Source: Escherichia coli (GTDB lineage Bacteria; Pseudomonadota; Gammaproteobacteria; Enterobacterales; Enterobacteriaceae). Taken from it: a stretch of DNA of 64,000 bases. Location: NCBI RefSeq assembly GCF_022846255.1, contig NZ_AP025682.1. One strand, 5' to 3'. Both the position numbers and the translations under genes were made by a program. This document shows, piece by piece, positions 9,668 to 47,152 of this stretch. How positions within the stretch are numbered: position 1 is the stretch's first letter; every line of letters begins with the position of its first letter. The notes under the pieces were generated by a model, which worked only from the letters and a program-made list of their open reading frames with translations, ran no database searches and was not told the DNA's origin.

Positions 9668-9744
9668 GTAGGACGGATAAGGCGTTTACGCCGCATCCGG
9701 CAACAGATGCCTGATGCGACGCTACCGCGTCTTATCAGACCTAC
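9668..9744. repeat. REP elements downstream of ybiJ
   Basis: gtaggacggataaggcgtttacgccgcatccggca and gcctgatgcgacgctaccgcgtcttatcagacctac. Confidence 0.85.
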
Positions 9745-23285: not shown

Positions 23286-24523
23286 AATGTAGCTGGCGCG
23301 AAGGCAATAAGATCCAGTTGCTGGAAAACGGCGAGCAATATTATCCCGCGGTGTTTAAGGCGATTGGCGAGGCGCAAGAACGCATCATTCTTGAAACGTT
23401 TATCTGGTTTGAGGATGACGTCGGCAAACAGCTGCATGCGGCGCTATTGGCAGCAGCGCAACGCGGGGTAAAAGCGGAAGTCTTGCTGGATGGCTACGGT
23501 TCGCCGGATCTCAGCGATGAGTTTGTCAATGAACTGACGGCAGCTGGCGTGGTGTTCCGCTACTACGATCCCCGCCCTCGCCTTTTTGGTATGCGCACCA
23601 ATGTGTTTCGCCGGATGCATCGCAAAATTGTGGTGATCGACGCGCGTATCGCCTTTATTGGCGGGCTGAATTACTCCGTCGAGCATATGTCCAGCTACGG
23701 CCCGGAGGCCAAACAGGATTACGCGGTACGCCTCGAAGGGCCGATTGTCGAAGATATTCTCCAGTTTGAGCTGGAAAACCTGCCAGGACAAAGCGCGGCG
23801 CGACGCTGGTGGCGACGTCATCATAAAGCGGAAGAGAACCGCCAGCCGGGAGAAGCGCAGGTATTGCTGGTCTGGCGCGATAACGAAGAACATCGCGATG
23901 ATATCGAACGTCACTATCTGAAAATGCTCACTCAGGCGCGGCGGGAAGTGATTATCGCCAACGCCTACTTCTTCCCCGGCTATCGTTTTTTACACGCCTT
24001 GCGTAAAGCGGCACGGCGCGGGGTGCGGATCAAACTGATCATTCAGGGCGAACCGGATATGCCGATTGTCAGAGTCGGCGCGCGTTTGCTGTATAACTAT
24101 CTGGTTAAAGGTGGCGTTCAGGTGTTTGAGTACCGCCGCCGCCCGCTCCACGGCAAAGTGGCATTGATGGACGATCACTGGGCGACAGTAGGGTCCAGTA
24201 ATCTCGATCCGCTCAGTTTGTCACTGAATCTCGAAGCAAATGTCATCATCCACGATCGTAATTTTAACCAGACGCTGCGCGATAATCTGAACGGCATTAT
24301 CGCCGCAGATTGTCAGCAGGTCGATGAGACCATGCTGCCGAAACGCACCTGGTGGAACCTGACCAAAAGCGTGCTGGCGTTCCACTTTTTACGCCACTTC
24401 CCGGCGCTGGTGGGCTGGCTTCCGGCGCACACGCCACGTCTGGCGCAGGTTGATCCCCCCGCACAACCGACAATGGAAACGCAGGATCGGGTAGAAACTG
24501 AAAACACGGGGGTAAAACCCTGA
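23282..24523 (+). CDS. clsB: cardiolipin synthase B (phospholipase D family)
   Basis: 413-aa ORF with two HxK(x)4D motifs (HRKIVVID..., HGKVALMDD...); 4-nt overlap with ybhP. Confidence 0.95.
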
Positions 24524-25479
24524 TGAGTAAATCACACCCGCGCTGGCGCTTAGCAAAGAAGATCCTCACCTGGCTGTTTTTTATCGCGGTGATTGTGTTG
24601 CTGGTGGTCTACGCCAAAAAAGTGGACTGGGAAGAGGTCTGGAAGGTCATCCGCGACTACAATCGCGTTGCGCTGCTTAGTGCGGTCGGGCTGGTGGTCG
24701 TCAGTTATCTGATTTACGGTTGCTACGACCTGCTCGCCCGTTTCTACTGCGGTCACAAACTGGCGAAGCGCCAGGTGATGCTGGTGTCGTTTATCTGCTA
24801 CGCCTTCAACCTGACACTCAGTACCTGGGTCGGCGGCATTGGTATGCGCTATCGTTTGTACTCCCGACTGGGGTTACCGGGCAGCACTATTACGCGGATT
24901 TTTTCGCTCAGTATTACCACCAACTGGCTAGGCTATATTTTGCTAGCGGGGGTTATCTTTACCGCAGGCGTGGTGGAGTTGCCGGATCACTGGTATGTCG
25001 ATCAAACTACGCTGCGTATTCTCGGTATTGGCTTACTGATGATTATCGCGGTTTATTTGTGGTTTTGCGCTTTCGCGAAGCACCGCCATATGACCATCAA
25101 AGGGCAAAAGCTGGTGCTGCCTTCGTGGAAATTCGCCCTCGCCCAGATGCTGATTTCCAGCGTTAACTGGATGGTAATGGGAGCGATTATCTGGCTGTTA
25201 CTTGGTCAAAGCGTGAACTATTTCTTTGTACTGGGCGTGTTGCTGGTTAGTAGTATTGCTGGCGTCATCGTGCATATTCCGGCGGGAATTGGTGTGCTGG
25301 AAGCGGTGTTTATCGCGCTACTGGCTGGGGAGCATACCTCCAAAGGCACAATTATCGCCGCCCTGCTCGCTTACCGTGTGCTGTATTACTTTATCCCACT
25401 GCTGCTGGCGCTGATCTGTTACCTGTTGCTGGAAAGCCAGGCGAAGAAGCTACGGGCGAAAAATAAAGCGGCGATGTGA
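24523..25479 (+). CDS. ybhN: inner membrane protein YbhN (UPF0104 / LPG-synthase-TM-like)
   Basis: 318-aa polytopic membrane ORF; start overlaps the clsB stop. Confidence 0.9.
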   Translation: MSKSHPRWRLAKKILTWLFFIAVIVLLVVYAKKVDWEEVWKVIRDYNRVALLSAVGLVVVSYLIYGCYDLLARFYCGHKLAKRQVMLVSFICYAFNLTLSTWVGGIGMRYRLYSRLGLPGSTITRIFSLSITTNWLGYILLAGVIFTAGVVELPDHWYVDQTTLRILGIGLLMIIAVYLWFCAFAKHRHMTIKGQKLVLPSWKFALAQMLISSVNWMVMGAIIWLLLGQSVNYFFVLGVLLVSSIAGVIVHIPAGIGVLEAVFIALLAGEHTSKGTIIAALLAYRVLYYFIPLLLALICYLLLESQAKKLRAKNKAAM

Positions 25480-25514
25480 AGTATAGTTAAGTTCTTTAGT
25501 ATGTGCATTTACGG

Positions 25515-26228
25515 CTAATGAAAAAACCGCGTATGCCTTTGCCAGACAAGCGTTATAGCTATAGTGGCAAGAATCCCAAAGAAGCCGATAAAATAGTAAT
25601 AGAGTGTTAATGCACCTATAAAAGCACAACGAACTGAACTCCATAATTCTTCACTATGGCTTTTTCCTGTCAGTTCAAGGAGCTTATTTCGTCCATGCGA
25701 GATAATGCCTGACCATAAGACAATCATTAAACAACTTATTACCCAAATGGGTCGTTCACTCATTAATGTGGCATTCACGATGATTACCAGGGCCAACCCT
25801 GTCAACGTCATCATAATGATAAAACGGTGAGAACCAGGATCAAATTTAAACAATAGACCTGCCAGCATACTGATTAAAAACATCGATCCCGCAGTGCTGA
25901 ACACGACGATAATGGCAGATACAGGCGCTAAACTCGCAACGACAATCGCCACCAAAGAGATTAAAAACAAATATATTACGCCCGCGATGGCGGTATTTAT
26001 CTTGTTGATATCTTTACTTAAGCCATACATAGAAAGTAATAATAATCCTATAGCAACATACATTTGCGGTGAATCATATTTTGTTGCCGTAATTTCGAGA
26101 TACTTAGCGCCCCAGGCCAGCCCTGCGGTTGCCACCAAACCCAAAGCGGTAATGAGCCATATGCCGTTTAATATCCTGGCTTCGTGCTGAAAATCTACTT
26201 TATTGCTATTTTGCGAGTATGATTCCAT
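25515..26228 (-). CDS. ybhM: BAX inhibitor-1 (TMBIM) family membrane protein YbhM
   Basis: ORF track 25515-26255; 237 aa from MESYSQNSNK; seven predicted TM segments; visibly AT-rich. Confidence 0.88.
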   Translation of the reverse strand: MESYSQNSNKVDFQHEARILNGIWLITALGLVATAGLAWGAKYLEITATKYDSPQMYVAIGLLLLSMYGLSKDINKINTAIAGVIYLFLISLVAIVVASLAPVSAIIVVFSTAGSMFLISMLAGLLFKFDPGSHRFIIMMTLTGLALVIIVNATLMSERPIWVISCLMIVLWSGIISHGRNKLLELTGKSHSEELWSSVRCAFIGALTLYYYFIGFFGILATIAITLVWQRHTRFFH

Positions 26229-26432
26229 TCTTTTAGTTGTCCTTAGAAAAAACATTAATATTCACCATCAATAAATTTAAAACTACGCATACAAAATACT
26301 TTTGCATTTATGGATACAGAAAACGCTTCCACTCGTCCATAAGGCATATTTTATACCTGGTACTTGTTAAGTGTCGTTTTTAATAAGAAAAAAATCCCGA
26401 CACATGGCCGGGATATTGATGGTGAAAAAGAA

Positions 26433-27137
26433 TTAACGGCGGTTGCCGAAGATCCGCAGCAACATCAGGAACAGGTTGATGAAGTCCAGATACAAGGTTA
26501 ACGCGCCAAGAATGGAATATTTGCGCAGGTTCGACGTGTCGCGAGTATCAATCTGCTCACCCATATTTTTCAGTTTCTGGGTGTCATACGCCGTCAATCC
26601 GACAAAGACAATCACGCCGATGTAGGTGACTGCCCACATCAATGCTTCGCTTTTCAGCCAGAAGTTAACCAGCGATGCCAGCACAATGCCGATTAACGCC
26701 ATAAACAGCATATTGCCAAAGCCGCTTAGATCGCGCTTCGTGGTGTAACCGTACAGGCTCATTGCGCCGAACATCCCGGCAGTAACGACGAAAGTACTGG
26801 CGATAGAAGCAGCCGTATAGACAATGAAAATACTGGAAAGCGTAAGACCCGTCAGCGCCGAATAAAGCATAAAGAGCATCGTCGTTACACCTGCGCTCAG
26901 CTTTTGAATCATCGCTGATAACACAATAACCAATGCTAATTGCGCGATGATCAGACCGATTAAAAAGACACGGTTAGTAAACAACAGCTCCATCACGGCC
27001 GCGGAATTAGCCGCATACCAGGCAACAAATGCTGTCAGCAACAAGCCAACGGTCATCCAGCCATAGACTTGCGCCATATAAGTTTGCAAGCCAGCCCGGG
27101 GTTGTACGATTGAATCAGAACGTGGGAATCTGTCCAT
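26433..27137 (-). CDS. ybhL: BAX inhibitor-1 (TMBIM/YccA) family membrane protein YbhL
   Basis: 234-aa ORF; BI-1/YccA family hydrophobic profile. Confidence 0.92.
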   Translation of the reverse strand: MDRFPRSDSIVQPRAGLQTYMAQVYGWMTVGLLLTAFVAWYAANSAAVMELLFTNRVFLIGLIIAQLALVIVLSAMIQKLSAGVTTMLFMLYSALTGLTLSSIFIVYTAASIASTFVVTAGMFGAMSLYGYTTKRDLSGFGNMLFMALIGIVLASLVNFWLKSEALMWAVTYIGVIVFVGLTAYDTQKLKNMGEQIDTRDTSNLRKYSILGALTLYLDFINLFLMLLRIFGNRR

Positions 27138-27236
27138 GACTTTCTCCTGAAGATATAAGGAATATCTTAAGGATACTGCAAAATGATGAGGCTGTGCATC
27201 GACGCAGCGTAAACGTATGTACTGAGCGGTGAAATT

Positions 27237-27263
27237 GCCGGACGCAGCGGTGCCTTATCCGGC
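27237..27263. repeat. REP element between ybhL and moaE
   Basis: gccggacgcagcggtgccttatccggc. Confidence 0.7.
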
Positions 27264-27273
27264 TAACAATAAA

Positions 27274-27726
27274 CTACCAGCGTTTTGCCGCCTGCTGATC
27301 GCTCTCCCGAGCTTCGACCCAGCGGTCGCCTTCCGGCGTGGCTTCGCGCTTCCAGAACGGTGCGCGGGTTTTGAGATAATCCATAATAAACTGCCCGGCT
27401 TCAAACGCACTGCTGCGATGCGCACTGGTAACACCGACAAAAACAATTTCATCGCCCGGCCATAATTCACCAATGCGGTGAATTACCGTGACGCGCCCCA
27501 GCGGCCAGCGGTTACGCGCTTCATCAACGATTTCTGCCAGTGCTTTTTCTGTCATTCCCGGATAGTGTTCGAGGGTTAATGCTTTGACGCTGTCGCCCAG
27601 GTTATGGTTGCGCACCTTACCGGTAAAGGTGACTACCGCACCGTCTTCGTCACGCTCAGCCAGCCACGGGTACTCTTCTCCTACGCTGAACGGCTGCGGG
27701 CCGACAACAATTTTGGTTTCTGCCAT
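27274..27726 (-). CDS. moaE: molybdopterin synthase catalytic subunit
   Basis: 150-aa ORF, last gene of moaABCDE. Confidence 0.96.
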   Translation of the reverse strand: MAETKIVVGPQPFSVGEEYPWLAERDEDGAVVTFTGKVRNHNLGDSVKALTLEHYPGMTEKALAEIVDEARNRWPLGRVTVIHRIGELWPGDEIVFVGVTSAHRSSAFEAGQFIMDYLKTRAPFWKREATPEGDRWVEARESDQQAAKRW

Positions 27727-28987: not shown

Positions 28988-29977
28988 TTAGCCACCAATG
29001 TACGATAAGTTTTGCGTAATACCGGTGTTATTTTGATGCAGGAAATGGGTCTGTTTTTTCTCCCGCAGCGCCGCTGAAATACGCGCTTCCAGCGCCTGTT
29101 GCTGGGTATCGTCTTCCAGCAGATCGCGCAGGTTAACGCCGCCTTCACCAAACAGGCAGAGATGGAGTTTACCAATGGAGGAAACGCGCAGGCGGTTGCA
29201 AGTGGCGCAGAAGTCTTTTTCATACGGCATGATAAGGCCAATCTCTCCGGCGTAATCCGGATGACAAAAGACTTGCGCGGGACCGTCGCTGCGTTGACGT
29301 AATTGGTGGATCCAGCCGCGACGCAGTAGCTCGTCACGCAGAACCTGACCAGAGATGTGATGCTTACGGAAGAGCTCGCTGCCCTCGCCCGTTTCCATCA
29401 ATTCGATGAAACGCAGCTGGATAGGGCGATGCTGGATCCAGTTCAGAAAGGTGTCGAGCTGATGATGATTAACATCACGCATCAGCACGGTATTGACTTT
29501 GACCTTCTCAAAACCGGCCTCAAATGCAGCATCGATTCCTGCCATGACCTGGTTGAATTTATCCTGCCCGGTAATGGCATGAAACTGGCGAGCGTCAAGG
29601 CTATCAACGCTGACGTTGATGCCAGTAAGTCCAGCATCGCGCCAGTTCGCCACATCGCGTTCCAGACGGTAACCATTGGTGGTGACCGCAATCTGGCGGA
29701 TAGCGTCGTTTTCCCGCACAGCGGCGATGATATCGGTAAAGTCGCGGCGTAAAGATGGCTCACCGCCCGTCAGACGGACTTTTTCGGTGCCAAGACTGGC
29801 GAAGGCGCGCGTAACCCGGCGAATTTCATCGACGGTAAGAAAGCCTTTATTGGTGACGCCGCTCGGTTTGTAGCCATCCGGCAGGCAGTAGGTGCAACGA
29901 AAGTTACACACATCGGTAATCGACAGGCGCAAGTAGTAAAACTTACGCGCAAATGCATCAGTCAGTTGTGAAGCCAT
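28988..29977 (-). CDS. moaA: GTP 3',8-cyclase (radical SAM)
   Basis: ORF track 28988-30058; 329 aa from [31 protein letters not shown] (CxxxCxxC radical SAM motif). Confidence 0.96.
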
Positions 29978-29979
29978 GT

Positions 29980-30125
29980 ACACCTTTCCAGATACGGGAG
30001 GCGAAGTCATTTCTTCCTTCGCCCTGGTGGCAATCTTTACAAGCATTGTCACGGCCAAAGCACCGTATCAGTTGACCCAGGTGCAGAGGCTAGAGTGTTT
30101 AGTGGTTAAGCCGATACTAGCGTGT
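29980..30125 (-). promoter_or_regulatory. moaA 5' leader; expected location of the Moco riboswitch RNA motif
   Basis: Long GC-structured leader directly upstream of moaA; assigned from known biology of the E. coli moaA leader, boundaries approximate and not folded. Confidence 0.5.
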
Positions 30126-38957: not shown

Positions 38958-39434
38958 ATGAAACTCATCAGTAACGATCTGCGCGATGGCGATAAGCTGC
39001 CGCATCGTCATGTCTTTAACGGCATGGGTTACGATGGCGATAATATTTCACCGCATCTGGCGTGGGATGATGTTCCTGCGGGAACGAAAAGTTTTGTTGT
39101 CACCTGCTACGACCCGGATGCGCCAACCGGCTCCGGCTGGTGGCACTGGGTAGTTGTTAATTTACCCGCTGATACCCGCGTATTACCGCAAGGGTTTGGC
39201 TCTGGTATGGTAGCAATGCCAGACGGCGTTTTGCAGACGCGTACCGACTTTGGTAAAACCGGGTACGATGGTGCAGCGCCGCCGAAAGGCGAAACCCATC
39301 GCTACATTTTTACCGTTCACGCGCTGGATGTAGAACGTATTGATGTCGATGAAGGTGCCAGCGGCGCGATGGTCGGGTTTAACGTTCATTTCCACTCTCT
39401 GGCAAGCGCCTCGATTACTGCGATGTTTAGTTAA
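38958..39434 (+). CDS. ybhB: PEBP/RKIP-family (kinase inhibitor-like) protein YbhB
   Basis: 158-aa ORF with PEBP motifs (YDPDAPT..., GxHRY). Confidence 0.92.
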   Translation: MKLISNDLRDGDKLPHRHVFNGMGYDGDNISPHLAWDDVPAGTKSFVVTCYDPDAPTGSGWWHWVVVNLPADTRVLPQGFGSGMVAMPDGVLQTRTDFGKTGYDGAAPPKGETHRYIFTVHALDVERIDVDEGASGAMVGFNVHFHSLASASITAMFS

Positions 39435-39585
39435 TCACTCTGCCAGATGGCGCAATGCCATCTGGTATCACTTAAAGGTATTAAAAACAACTTTTTGTCT
39501 TTTTACCTTCCCGTTTCGCTAAAGTTAGTATAAAAAAGCAGGCTTCAACGGATTCATTTTTCTATTTCATAGCCCGGAGCAACCT

Positions 39586-40869
39586 GTGAACACATTTTCA
39601 GTTTCCCGTCTGGCGCTGGCATTGGCTTTTGGCGTGACGCTGACCGCCTGTAGCTCAACACCGCCCGATCAACGTCCTTCTGATCAAACCGCGCCTGGTA
39701 CCTCTTCTCGCCCGATTCTGTCGGCAAAAGAAGCGCAGAATTTCGATGCTCAACACTATTTTGCATCCCTGACACCAGGTGCGGCAGCGTGGAATCCTTC
39801 CCCGATTACCCTGCCTGCGCAACCTGACTTTGTTGTCGGCCCGGCGGGTACTCAAGGTGTAACGCATACCACGATTCAGGCGGCGGTAGATGCGGCAATT
39901 ATCAAGCGTACCAACAAGCGCCAGTATATTGCCGTGATGCCTGGTGAGTATCAGGGAACGGTATATGTCCCTGCCGCTCCGGGTGGAATTACTCTGTACG
40001 GTACAGGTGAAAAACCGATTGATGTGAAGATTGGGCTTTCCCTTGATGGGGGCATGAGCCCTGCCGACTGGCGTCACGACGTCAACCCGCGCGGCAAATA
40101 TATGCCAGGTAAACCAGCGTGGTATATGTACGATAGCTGCCAGAGCAAACGCAGCGACAGTATCGGCGTTCTCTGCTCTGCGGTCTTCTGGTCACAAAAC
40201 AATGGACTGCAACTGCAAAACCTGACCATCGAAAACACGCTGGGCGATAGCGTAGATGCGGGTAACCATCCGGCGGTGGCACTGCGTACTGATGGTGACC
40301 AGGTACAGATTAACAACGTTAACATTCTCGGTCGTCAGAACACCTTCTTTGTCACCAACAGCGGTGTGCAGAACCGTCTGGAAACGAATCGTCAGCCGCG
40401 TACGCTGGTGACCAACAGCTACATTGAAGGGGATGTGGATATCGTTTCTGGTCGCGGCGCAGTGGTGTTCGATAACACCGAATTCCGCGTGGTGAACTCC
40501 CGTACCCAGCAAGAAGCGTATGTGTTTGCACCGGCTACGCTGTCCAACATTTACTACGGTTTCCTCGCCGTAAACAGCCGTTTCAATGCTTCCGGTGATG
40601 GCGTGGCGCAACTGGGCCGCTCGCTGGATGTTGATGCCAATACCAACGGTCAGGTAGTGATCCGTGATAGCGCCATCAACGAAGGTTTTAACACGGCCAA
40701 ACCGTGGGCCGATGCGGTGATCTCAAATCGTCCGTTTGCGGGTAACACCGGCAGCGTTGATGATAAAGACGAAATACAGCGCAATCTGAATGACACTAAC
40801 TACAACCGCATGTGGGAATACAATAACCGCGGCGTGGGTAGCAAAGTGGTTGCAGAGGCGAAGAAGTAG
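39586..40869 (+). CDS. ybhC: pectinesterase-fold outer-membrane lipoprotein YbhC
   Basis: 427-aa ORF, lipoprotein signal peptide (LTACSS), pectin methylesterase-like motifs. Confidence 0.92.
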   Translation: MNTFSVSRLALALAFGVTLTACSSTPPDQRPSDQTAPGTSSRPILSAKEAQNFDAQHYFASLTPGAAAWNPSPITLPAQPDFVVGPAGTQGVTHTTIQAAVDAAIIKRTNKRQYIAVMPGEYQGTVYVPAAPGGITLYGTGEKPIDVKIGLSLDGGMSPADWRHDVNPRGKYMPGKPAWYMYDSCQSKRSDSIGVLCSAVFWSQNNGLQLQNLTIENTLGDSVDAGNHPAVALRTDGDQVQINNVNILGRQNTFFVTNSGVQNRLETNRQPRTLVTNSYIEGDVDIVSGRGAVVFDNTEFRVVNSRTQQEAYVFAPATLSNIYYGFLAVNSRFNASGDGVAQLGRSLDVDANTNGQVVIRDSAINEGFNTAKPWADAVISNRPFAGNTGSVDDKDEIQRNLNDTNYNRMWEYNNRGVGSKVVAEAKK

Positions 40870-44962: not shown

Positions 44963-46015
44963 TCAGGGAAGATAAACTTCACCGGAAAATATTTTTCTTG
45001 TCGTCCGAATAACAGATGCGCGTAACGTCGTGGCATCCTGACCTTCATTACTTAAATGAACGTCGAGCGCACCACTGGGGTGTTCAATATTGATATTGCC
45101 GTATCCTACAGAAGGGACGATTTGTCGGGTGACGGTACCTTCCAATGCACAACTACTGGAAATAGCAATAGCACCGGTTATCGCCAAAGCGCGATGGCAA
45201 GAATGCGGCATAAAATAACGCACATTAATTGCCCCGCCTTTCTGCGCTGGAGAAATAAGTACAGGTTTAGGGATAACCATATTACTGACATCGCCTAAGC
45301 CCATTGCTTTACCCGCTTGTAGACGGATAGATTCAATGCGGGCTAATAATGCTTTGTCGGCATCCAGCTCTGCCGGTAATTCATAGCCTGTTTTTCCCAG
45401 ATATTCAGCAGGAATAATGACAACTGGCATCGCCATATCGATACAGGTCACCGGGACATCGTCAAAATAATCAATCTGATTATCCGTCGGGAAGACTTTT
45501 CCGGTTTTCGTTCCGGCGGCATTCAGGAAAGTGAGCGCAACCGGTGCGGCAGTACCCGGTACGCCGTCAATTCTGGCGCTACCCTCGTACTCGACAACAC
45601 CATTTGGCGTTTGCACATCAGCTTCGATAAACGTACCCGTATTGACGTTGCGGATACGTACGCGGGTAACTGGCGAAGTCGCTGCAATCAAACCATTTTC
45701 AATGGCGAATGCCCCAACGCCAGACAGCATATTGCCGCAGTTAGGCGTGGTATCGACACGTTGCTCATGGACGATAACTTGAGCAAACAGATAATCGACA
45801 TCTGCACGCGGATCGCTGGAGCGGCTAATAATGGCGACTTTACTGGTCAGCGGATTACCGCCGCCAATACCGTCAATTTCCAGATCGTTACCGGAACCCA
45901 TAATTGCCATCAATATTTTATCGCGCTGCGTTTGATCTTCGGGTAGATGTTCCGCTAACAGGAACGCGCCCCTCGAGGTTCCACCTCGCATCATCACGCA
46001 GGGTATTTTTTTCAT
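44963..46015 (-). CDS. ybhH: PrpF-family isomerase YbhH
   Basis: 350-aa ORF; PrpF/AcnD-accessory family features. Confidence 0.88.
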   Translation of the reverse strand: MKKIPCVMMRGGTSRGAFLLAEHLPEDQTQRDKILMAIMGSGNDLEIDGIGGGNPLTSKVAIISRSSDPRADVDYLFAQVIVHEQRVDTTPNCGNMLSGVGAFAIENGLIAATSPVTRVRIRNVNTGTFIEADVQTPNGVVEYEGSARIDGVPGTAAPVALTFLNAAGTKTGKVFPTDNQIDYFDDVPVTCIDMAMPVVIIPAEYLGKTGYELPAELDADKALLARIESIRLQAGKAMGLGDVSNMVIPKPVLISPAQKGGAINVRYFMPHSCHRALAITGAIAISSSCALEGTVTRQIVPSVGYGNINIEHPSGALDVHLSNEGQDATTLRASVIRTTRKIFSGEVYLP

Positions 46016-46198
46016 AATAATGCCCTCAATTTAAAAACATAACTTATTGCGATATGGTTACATTAAGGGCAAAGCATCTCTAATGACTTTAGCTCAACGA
46101 TTAATAACATTTTTTCATTAATTTAAGTTGGCTAAATGCAGTTAAAATTTTTAACTGCCAGTCACCCAAAATCGTCGCTTCCATTTTCCGGAGTAATA

Positions 46199-47152
46199 AT
46201 GAAGCATGAATTATCAAGTATGAAGGCATTTGTCATACTGGCAGAGTCCAGTTCATTTAACAATGCCGCTAAATTACTCAATATTACGCAACCTGCATTA
46301 ACGCGAAGAATAAAAAAGATGGAGGAAGATTTACATATTCAACTATTTGAGCGTACAACTCGCAAGGTTACGTTAACAAAAGCAGGAAAAAGGTTGCTCC
46401 CGGAGGCGCGGGAATTAATAAAGAAATTCGATGAAACGCTTTTTAATATTCGTGATATGAATGCTTATCATCGTGGTATGGTGACGTTAGCGTGTATTCC
46501 GACCGCAGTATTTTATTTTTTACCGCTGGCAATCGGTAAATTTAATGAGCTGTATCCCAATATTAAAGTGCGGATTCTGGAACAAGGCACGAATAATTGC
46601 ATGGAATCGGTGCTGTGTAACGAATCAGACTTTGGCATAAACATGAACAACGTCACAAATTCATCCATTGATTTTACCCCACTGGTCAACGAGCCGTTCG
46701 TGCTGGCCTGTCGGCGTGACCATCCATTGGCCAAAAAGCAGCTTGTAGAATGGCAGGAGTTAGTGGGTTACAAAATGATTGGCGTACGCTCCTCCAGCGG
46801 CAACCGACTGTTGATAGAACAACAGCTAGCCGACAAGCCCTGGAAGCTGGACTGGTTTTACGAAGTGCGTCATCTTTCGACGTCATTAGGGCTGGTGGAG
46901 GCGGGACTGGGGATTTCGGCGCTTCCTGGTCTGGCAATGCCCCATGCGCCCTATTCTTCGATTATTGGTATCCCGCTGGTGGAACCGGTTATACGTCGGA
47001 CATTGGGGATTATTCGCCGCAAAGATGCCGTGCTTTCTCCGGCAGCTGAACGCTTTTTTGCCTTGCTGATTAATTTGTGGACTGACGATAAAGACAATTT
47101 GTGGACCAATATCGTCGAACGCCAGAGACATGCGTTACAGGAGATAGGTTAA
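46199..47152 (+). CDS. ybhD: LysR-type transcriptional regulator YbhD
   Basis: ORF track 46136-47152; 317 aa from MKHELSSMKAF; N-terminal LysR HTH; divergent from ybhH. Confidence 0.9.
   Translation: MKHELSSMKAFVILAESSSFNNAAKLLNITQPALTRRIKKMEEDLHIQLFERTTRKVTLTKAGKRLLPEARELIKKFDETLFNIRDMNAYHRGMVTLACIPTAVFYFLPLAIGKFNELYPNIKVRILEQGTNNCMESVLCNESDFGINMNNVTNSSIDFTPLVNEPFVLACRRDHPLAKKQLVEWQELVGYKMIGVRSSSGNRLLIEQQLADKPWKLDWFYEVRHLSTSLGLVEAGLGISALPGLAMPHAPYSSIIGIPLVEPVIRRTLGIIRRKDAVLSPAAERFFALLINLWTDDKDNLWTNIVERQRHALQEIG

Follow-up and report, generated by a model that had tools for sequence, protein, structure and literature searches.

The ybhM islet and its composition

We analysed a 64,000-nucleotide stretch of Escherichia coli DNA (contig NZ_AP025682.1; hereafter the window) with regard to ybhM, a gene for a membrane protein of the BAX-inhibitor-1 (BI-1) family that lies beside its paralog ybhL. 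Gene names follow the RefSeq annotation of the O150:H6 strain FEX669, which is 100% identical to the window over positions 25300-27300, an interval that was matched in 5424 of 5426 complete E. coli genomes. In that annotation ybhP-clsB-ybhN lie on the plus strand and are followed by ybhM, ybhL and moaEDCBA on the minus strand. The interval 25480-26432 runs from 1 base past the ybhN stop to 1 base before the ybhL stop and consists of ybhM and both of its spacers; read along the minus strand, the order is ybhL stop, terminator, predicted promoter, a 120-nt AT-rich leader, ybhM, 35 bp, and the convergent ybhN stop (Table 1).

An earlier note on this DNA, made by eye, had described ybhM as more AT-rich than the flanking genes and ybhL as normal in composition. 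The GC content of 25480-26432 is 38.5%, against 52.2% for the whole window. The longest ybhM open reading frame (ORF), which starts further upstream than the annotated gene at an ATG at 26255, has 40.2% GC, a value reached or undercut in only 0.95% of the 741-bp sliding windows over the 64 kb (mean 52.2%, SD 3.65%), and by that measure just one other site, at ~45.6-46.9 kb, is as AT-rich. There, positions 45900-46700 (33-40% GC) cover the divergent intergenic region between ybhH (44963-46015, minus strand) and an ORF for a LysR-type regulator (46136-47152, plus strand), together with the 5' part of the latter.

The ybhM coding sequence (CDS) has 40.8% GC, with 41.2%, 39.1% and 42.0% at the first, second and third codon positions (GC1, GC2 and GC3), while 35 neighbouring genes average 53.9% GC and 59% GC3. 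Relative to these neighbours ybhM is an outlier in GC (z = -5.8), GC1 (-3.3), GC3 (-3.4) and local codon-adaptation index (0.486, leave-one-out; z = -4.65), but not in GC2 (-0.9). For ybhL the overall GC is 48.9% and GC3 a normal 61.3%, 19 points above that of ybhM, whereas GC2 is 39.1% in both genes. Given that GC2 is equal and GC3 differs, the contrast between the two lies in synonymous and first-position usage and not in the amino acids of a membrane protein. The codons themselves agree: ATA accounts for 9 of 28 isoleucine codons in ybhM and for none in ybhL, ybhN or clsB, leucine is encoded by 13 TTA and 4 CTG codons, and rare codons (AGA, AGG, ATA, CTA, CGA, GGA) make up 7.6% of the gene against 1.2-2.2% in six neighbours. 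The low GC has sharp edges, with an islet of 38.4% set between 900-bp flanks of 52.3% and 48.4%, and the low GC and atypical codons are a property of the whole islet. Both the sliding-window and the codon-adaptation calculations thus place ybhM outside the normal range of its neighbourhood, as the earlier note had it; its description of ybhL holds at synonymous sites and fails for overall GC.

It is scarcely credible that the low GC is a by-product of hydrophobic composition, or that ybhM is a dead or spurious ORF in an AT-rich spacer. Membrane proteins do depress GC1 and GC2, as the overall GC of ybhL illustrates, and many truncated ybhM variants exist; however, amino-acid composition is ruled out as the cause by the equal GC2 and the 19-point gap in GC3. 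A frame of 237 open codons at such a GC content has a chance of ~2e-7, and the ratio of nonsynonymous to synonymous divergence (omega) is significantly below 1 (p = 3.6e-4), so that the gene is real and still under some selection. The 237-codon ORF is also retained in E. coli, in the related Escherichia lineage represented by locus L096, and in E. albertii, and the match of YbhM to the Pfam family Bax1-I is full-length. A spurious ORF is ruled out by this match together with omega and the conservation of the frame.

Table 1. Features of the ybhM locus, in window coordinates
Feature	Position	Strand	Basis or remark
ybhM CDS, 237 aa	25515-26228	minus	ORF list, RefSeq annotation, Pfam Bax1-I (63.2 bits), omega <1
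AT-rich islet, 906 bp, 38.4% GC	25486-26391	none	defined by the empty-site junction in L002
Predicted sigma-70-like promoter of ybhM, ACGACA-16 nt-TATAAA	26350-26377	minus	consensus scan and sequence; whole feature 26348-26377
Intrinsic terminator of ybhL, hairpin ATCCCGGCCATGTGTCGGGAT plus T run	26388-26414	minus	terminator scan; right-hand islet edge
ybhN-ybhM spacer, 35 bp between convergent stops, no hairpin	25480-25514	none	sequence, terminator scan
ybhL, canonical BI-1 paralog, 234 aa, reference gene	26433-27137	minus	
ybhN, LPG_synthase_TM family, conserved left islet flank, GC3 66.8%	24523-25479	plus	

The proposal that ybhM and ybhL have separate promoters is supported by the arrangement of their shared spacer, in which a strong ybhL terminator (hairpin proper 26414-26394, followed by the T run) precedes the predicted sigma-70-like promoter of ybhM. 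Shimada et al. 2014 (PMC3946193) report the same hexamers in K-12 and class the promoter as a constitutive one of RpoD; in their genomic SELEX (systematic evolution of ligands by exponential enrichment) data the spacer between ybhL and ybhM also has an HNS entry. The window shows no enrichment of the high-affinity motif of H-NS (68 matches against 59 expected); the motif scan returned one site with 1 mismatch at 26268-26277.

YbhM as a divergent member of the BI-1 family

The assignment of both neighbours to the BI-1 family, on the same strand, proved correct. YbhM scores 63.2 bits against Pfam Bax1-I (PF01027; cutoff 34.1), with residues 28-232 on positions 3-206 of the 207-position profile, and YbhL 212 bits, also over its full length; NCBIfam returned no family for YbhM. 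The two proteins are only 21-25% identical, and an hhalign comparison of a YbhM-like profile with a profile of YbhL and canonical proteins gave a probability of 99.6% (E = 1e-24) over 215 columns. A HMMER search with YbhM of 1.84 billion representative proteins returned about ten full-length relatives at E <1e-10 outside the YbhM cluster, 25-35% identical, and canonical BI-1 proteins surfaced only at E ~1e-10 and weaker. The named relatives are all from Enterobacteriaceae, namely Escherichia (three types), Salmonella (two), Kluyvera georgiana, Superficieibacter and Pseudocitrobacter. Phytobacter carries a further type, and a profile search with the YbhM-like alignment added, among its best 8000 candidates, only the Phytobacter members and those of a type that we call "mid".

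In a neighbour-joining tree the YbhM-like proteins form one clade with 99% bootstrap support, apart from the YbhL orthologues and the other canonical proteins, so that the phylogeny does separate YbhM from YbhL. The position of YccA is not evidence here, because YccA was the chosen outgroup. Identities inside the YbhM-like clade are 19-46%, whereas YbhL proteins are 72-100% identical across Enterobacterales. By these sequence comparisons YbhM is a true but distant homologue of YbhL, in a small and very divergent subfamily found only in Enterobacteriaceae.

The conservation of two aspartates in canonical proteins bears on what this subfamily might do. D185 and D218 of YbhL align with D171 and D195 of BsYetJ, which form the di-aspartyl pH sensor that channel function in the TMBIM family requires (PMC9379554). 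At the D185 column Escherichia YbhM has glycine (alanine in E. albertii) and at the D218 column tyrosine, an assignment on which BLASTP, MAFFT and hhalign agree; the motifs AYDTQKL and LYLDFINLF of YbhL correspond to SHGRNKL and LYYYFIGFF in YbhM. Other YbhM-like proteins mostly have glutamate at the first position and serine, glycine or cysteine at the second. Without either of the acidic residues that make up the pH sensor and pore, YbhM is unlikely to be a canonical pH-gated Ca2+/H+ leak channel.

AlphaFold2 models of YbhM (predicted local distance difference test, pLDDT, 85; predicted template modelling score, pTM, 0.81) and YbhL (86.5 and 0.82) are of similar confidence, and seven long helices are predicted in YbhM at the positions they take in the YbhL model; YbhM is accordingly modelled as a seven-helix inner-membrane protein. 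Its likeness to YbhL and to YetJ (PDB 4PGR) extends to whole-length homology, a size of ~235 aa, seven predicted helices and, for YbhL, adjacency on the same strand. Unlike them, YbhM has the low identity and the Gly/Tyr substitutions described above, and a sequence search of the PDB with the YbhM-like profile matched no chain at E <=1; compared with ybhL, its gene evolves ~20 times faster, is rich in AT, and can be dispensed with in many strains.

YccA offers a second comparison. It too is a BI-1 family inner-membrane paralog, and its glutamate and serine at the positions in transmembrane helices (TM) 6 and 7 are shared by most YbhM-like proteins. It is a substrate and modulator of the FtsH/HflKC protease (PMC9379554, PMC7876416), and since it has no Asp-Asp pair, a non-channel, regulatory role of the BI-1 fold has a precedent. 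On the other hand, YbhM is only 16% identical to YccA, the E. coli protein lacks even the glutamate, a tblastn search of the window with YccA matched ybhL and not ybhM, and binding to and degradation by FtsH/HflKC are recorded only for YccA (PMC9379554, PMC7876416).

Origin and fate of the islet

To place the islet at its site, we scanned for YbhL in one genome per species, which gave 80 loci (the matches listed, among which E. fergusonii, E. marmotae and E. ruysiae do not figure), 55 of them with ybhN within reach. In ~45 of these 55 the two genes are convergent, 50-160 bp apart, and share one common hairpin, homologous to the ybhL terminator hairpin of the window; 9 carry other inserts. The empty junction occurs in Citrobacter, Enterobacter, Trabulsiella, Lelliottia, Buttiauxella, Pantoea, Erwinia and others, and most Enterobacteriaceae therefore have only the shared hairpin where E. 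coli has ybhM, which answers the question of presence or absence across the family that the earlier note had raised. One E. coli-labelled genome without ybhM (L002) joins window position 26392 directly to 25485, and its junction sets the bounds of the islet given in Table 1. In this genome the flanks next to the junction (L002 5638-5830) are only 82-88% identical to the window, while its YbhL and MoaE proteins are 100% identical, which suggests that a short imported segment replaced the islet.

The islet parts ybhN from the hairpin that ybhL and ybhN share in empty-site genomes. Because of this separation, antisense read-through from the ybhP-clsB-ybhN operon is possible, and transcription of that operon may run through ybhM.

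The same junction holds unrelated cargo in other loci: a catalase and a lipocalin-like gene in Pluralibacter (L031 5703-9105), two small ORFs in Siccibacter (L039 5706-6469), a 257-aa ORF in Dryocola (L025 5709-6956), and an EptA-like sulfatase in E. albertii (L003 6063-7724). Since unrelated cargo lies there in other genera, we regard the ybhL-ybhN junction as a general hot spot.

YbhM-like genes are nearly always found directly downstream of ybhL, in arrays of one to three that are accompanied by small AT-rich ORFs and that reach four BI-1 genes counting ybhL. In 750 of the 5426 E. coli genomes an extra "mid" gene stands between ybhL and ybhM; the junction of this haplotype is not homologous to that of the window, and ybhM receives a different set of first 16 codons. 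Three loci whose proteins are labelled E. coli or Escherichia sp. (L096-L098), with a synonymous divergence (dS) of ~0.2 from E. coli, carry ybhL, mid, ybhM, a gene of a third YbhM-like type (P0079-type), DUF3969 and a 73-aa ORF, closely spaced as far as the ybhN stop. In E. albertii the array is made up of the EptA-like sulfatase, what remains of ybhM, a gene of the P0079 type and DUF3969, and in a Kluyvera-like contig (L099) three YbhM-like genes lie among eight small ORFs as GC falls from 53% to 28%. By parsimony, the ancestral Escherichia array would have been larger and the usual E. coli state a reduced remnant of it. In Escherichia, Salmonella, Kluyvera, Pseudocitrobacter and L099 the YbhM-like genes and the genes that accompany them have a lower GC3 than the host ybhL. 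One further locus (that of P0265), an assembly full of frameshifts, was set aside.

Given that the earlier note had proposed either horizontal acquisition of ybhM or evolution under different constraints, we compared substitution rates with those of the flanking genes. Relative to the L096 lineage, dS of ybhM is 0.20-0.21 and that of clsB, ybhN, ybhL and moaE 0.12-0.27, whereas nonsynonymous divergence (dN) is 0.078 in ybhM against 0-0.008 in the flanks, with omega of 0.37-0.40 against 0-0.04. As its dS is no different from that of the flanking genes, ybhM has passed down vertically since the split of E. coli and L096, and its acquisition predates the Escherichia radiation. Over all the strain pairs compared, ybhM has a dN of 0.035-0.08 and an omega of 0.14-0.8 (0.14-0.81 among E. 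coli alleles), while in the same strain pairs clsB, ybhN, ybhL and moaE have dN <=0.009 and omega mostly 0-0.04. Purifying selection on ybhM is thus 10-20 times weaker than on its neighbours, and the suggestion of different constraints was right. The suggestion of horizontal acquisition stands in a refined form: when compared with most Enterobacteriaceae, all 906 bp of the islet are inserted sequence, but the insertion is ancient.

The window allele of ybhM is 99.2% identical to that of Nissle 1917 and differs by ~7% of nucleotides from the majority K-12/O157 type; in 4185 genomes ybhM falls in the identity band of 90-95%, where ybhL and ybhN are mostly at 95-99%.

The islet has been damaged often. 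Although ybhM was found in 5399 of the 5426 complete E. coli genomes, only 4796 match 80% or more of the query and 27 have no ybhM, and the gene is truncated, disrupted or deleted in ~11-12%. Most often the defect is an internal deletion, in frame, after which 129 aa remain; one protein cluster of this form has 452 members. Insertion sequence (IS) elements have struck the islet repeatedly in E. coli: IS200C interrupts the hairpin of the ybhL terminator next to a ybhM with an internal deletion (L093 2501-3618), ybhM was deleted via IS1 (L094 2573-3270), an IS1F insertion in the gene was also seen, and HB101/RR1 carry ybhM::IS5 (PMC5379014). In enterohaemorrhagic E. coli on lettuce, one study reports that ybhM was induced 4.6-5.1-fold (PMC6891304).

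These features could also be read as decay in place, in which ybhM would have arisen long ago as a tandem duplicate of ybhL, would never have been transferred, and would have lost its original function; with selection on protein and codons relaxed, AT-biased mutation would have brought GC3 near mutational equilibrium, and in which lineages without ybhM would simply have lost it. Such a history accommodates the position of YbhM-like genes directly downstream of ybhL and on its strand in Escherichia, Salmonella, Kluyvera, Pseudocitrobacter, Phytobacter and L099, the restriction of the family to Enterobacteriaceae, the basal Phytobacter copy with host-like GC, an omega of ~0.4 with dS equal to that of the flanks within Escherichia, and the lack of mobility signatures at the islet. 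It does not account for the unrelated AT-rich ORFs of the same arrays, among them DUF3969 (GC3 22%), a 553-aa sulfatase (GC3 30%) and the Sip4-like genes described below, or for the unrelated cargo at the same junction in other genera. Further points against it are a second copy of a Salmonella module (36-46% identical) in a separate island after guaA, accompanied in L086 by a DDE transposase and TsiV; the YbhM-like gene of Superficieibacter, whose ybhL-ybhN site is empty; and three E. coli structural haplotypes with non-homologous junction sequence. We therefore hold decay in place to be unlikely, if the most serious competitor of an accessory islet. The islet may go back to a tandem duplication of ybhL with later exchange by way of the conserved flanks, or may have been imported from elsewhere.

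Among known systems, AT-rich enterobacterial islets bound by H-NS are alike in the drop of GC at the edges, the atypical and rare codons, a predicted promoter of their own, absence from the orthologous site in related genera, and the HNS SELEX entry for the spacer (PMC3946193). The ybhM islet differs from them in being very small (0.9 kb and one gene), in lacking mobility genes or repeats, in being ancient and near-fixed in E. coli (99.5%), and in carrying a paralog of the core gene next to it.

Several candidate traces of mobility were discarded. Matches on plasmids proved to be mislabelled chromosomes, chromosome fragments, or ybhL-like genes at 26% identity. A 21-nt two-copy match (25504-25524 and 26303-26323, 81%) was considered as a cassette-boundary repeat and is taken as chance because it is absent from other arrays. 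A tblastn search of the window with all family members and partner proteins found no further cassette remnants in the ybhL-ybhM spacer.

Elsewhere in the window, Rfam matches mark a Moco riboswitch upstream of moaA (29965-30109, minus strand, 103 bits) and, following ybiJ, the nucleoid-associated RNA element naRNA4 (9671-9741, plus strand, 72.7 bits). The RefSeq annotation of a near-identical strain places an InsQ/TnpB gene (RNA-guided endonuclease family) between bioA and ybhB, at ~39010-40140, and a NADAR-domain pseudogene between dinG and rhlE.

The Salmonella module and the role of YbhM

The Salmonella gene annotated as ybhM is only ~27% identical to E. coli YbhM and is therefore not its orthologue. 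It heads a module (L083 6001-7908; L085 6001-7900) of three membrane proteins, A (~235 aa), B (~202 aa) and C (~186 aa), between ybhL and ybhN, and a second copy of the module, 36-46% identical, lies in the island after guaA, which in L086 also carries the DDE transposase and a TsiV immunity homologue. Six B and C proteins, 21-39% identical to one another, were tested, and each has as its sole NCBIfam match NF053812, "immunity protein Sip4" (best E = 8.5e-9), with scores of 24-32 bits where the curated cutoff is 240. Sip4 itself has four TM, lies in the inner membrane and confers immunity to Ssp4, a pore-forming effector of the T6SS (type VI secretion system) (PMC12669606). Other weak matches were not significant (MafI, E = 0.006; Tgi2PP, E = 0.25), and a k-mer search with partner C returned named homologues only in Salmonella. 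The module suggests, by way of a hint, a protective role.

Taken further, this hint leads to the proposal that YbhM-like proteins guard the inner membrane against the pore-forming or depolarising toxins of competitors and that the arrays are orphan immunity islands, so that the AT-richness, the arrays and the fast protein evolution would reflect an arms race and horizontal flux. Consistent with it are the YbhM-like gene of Salmonella followed by two membrane-protein genes that match the Sip4 model (6 of 6), the retention of the three genes as a unit at two loci, one of them with the TsiV homologue nearby, the divergent paralog arrays interspersed with small ORFs, and the elevated omega of ybhM. 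The resemblance to known orphan immunity arrays, and to Sip4 of the Serratia T6SS pair Ssp4/Sip4, extends to the tandem, divergent small membrane and cytosolic proteins of related loci (L096, L099, L082), to AT-richness and fast protein evolution, and to the joining of the Salmonella YbhM-like gene to two distant Sip4 homologues.

Much speaks against it, however. The Sip4 scores lie far under the curated cutoff, no toxin gene stands beside any array examined, and the window holds a single ybhM gene and no array, with no effector gene nearby and no Sip4-like gene found by tblastn. Omega never exceeds 1, and the truncated, disrupted or deleted copies include one widespread deletion allele. Searches of PADLOC and PHROGs gave no matches for YbhM-like or partner proteins save one non-significant PHROG match for DUF3969, a family that no paper in our literature search mentions. 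The same search found no paper linking BI-1 proteins to immunity, T6SS immunity included, none pairing ybhL with yccA, and no functional study of ybhM; to our knowledge the BI-1 fold is no known immunity family. We judge an immunity function improbable on this balance. It would be an equally long shot to see in YbhM-like proteins literal bacterial "Bax inhibitors", that is, BI-1-fold immunity factors against alpha-helical pore-forming toxins of the Ssp4 type, colicin-like toxins or ionophores of contact-dependent inhibition (CDI) systems, and we are just as doubtful of the corollary that a hypervariable orphan-immunity island with Sip4-like genes lies 3' of ybhL and that E. coli ybhM is its last cassette.

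We favour instead, with a probability of about 0.65, the reading that ybhM is a weakly constrained gene on an old AT-rich accessory islet, a remnant of a larger array of BI-1 paralogs, and no longer a canonical BI-1 channel. On this account an array of divergent YbhM-like paralogs and small AT-rich ORFs would have been present 3' of ybhL before the Escherichia lineages split, and the subfamily would most plausibly have begun as a tandem duplicate of ybhL. Through recombination in the conserved flanks, lineages may then have gained and lost cassettes and swapped them with one another, which would leave the present islet as a reduced remnant of the larger array. Since then ybhM would have been inherited vertically in Escherichia under relaxed purifying selection, and weak selection on a poorly expressed gene may have kept the AT-richness and atypical codons of the islet. 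As to the role of the protein, a dispensable, condition-specific one, either membrane-protective or regulatory, appears more likely.

A number of observations weigh against this reading. Comparison of the window allele with the K-12/O157-type alleles (L089, L090, L091) gives a ybhM dS of 0.23-0.25, about twice that of the flanks, and simple vertical descent does not explain this divergence within E. coli. In the window, no IS, integrase, tRNA gene, target-site duplication or flanking repeat is present at the islet, ybhM has no copy on a true plasmid or a phage, and no donor was identified, the 1.84 billion representative proteins having yielded no relative outside Enterobacteriaceae. The Phytobacter copy, basal in the clade, has a GC3 of 76% against 73% for its ybhL; given this host-like value AT-richness is not universal in the family and could arise in place by drift. 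The case against a canonical channel rests on motif loss, and YccA, which has the Glu and Ser noted above and so also lacks the second aspartate, is functional; loss of the Asp pair alone is therefore not loss of function. H-NS binding and low expression of ybhM have their basis in the literature only.

The dS between the window allele and the K-12/O157 type is of the same depth as that between E. coli and the L096 lineage of Escherichia.

The gene itself was already known, and its evolutionary setting is modestly new. Usually filed as a third protein of the BI-1/YccA family among the uncharacterised y-genes of E. coli, YbhM emerges here as no routine paralog: in the revised picture it belongs to a small, very fast-evolving branch confined to Enterobacteriaceae, with the channel residues lost, and is encoded in a variable array at a recombination-prone junction. 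The Salmonella module gives a first testable idea on the function of YbhM-like genes, and an immunity role, if true, would parallel the action of eukaryotic BI-1 against Bax pores. Should that idea fail, the locus would still be a clean natural example of a duplicated membrane protein whose composition and sequence decay beside a frozen neighbour.

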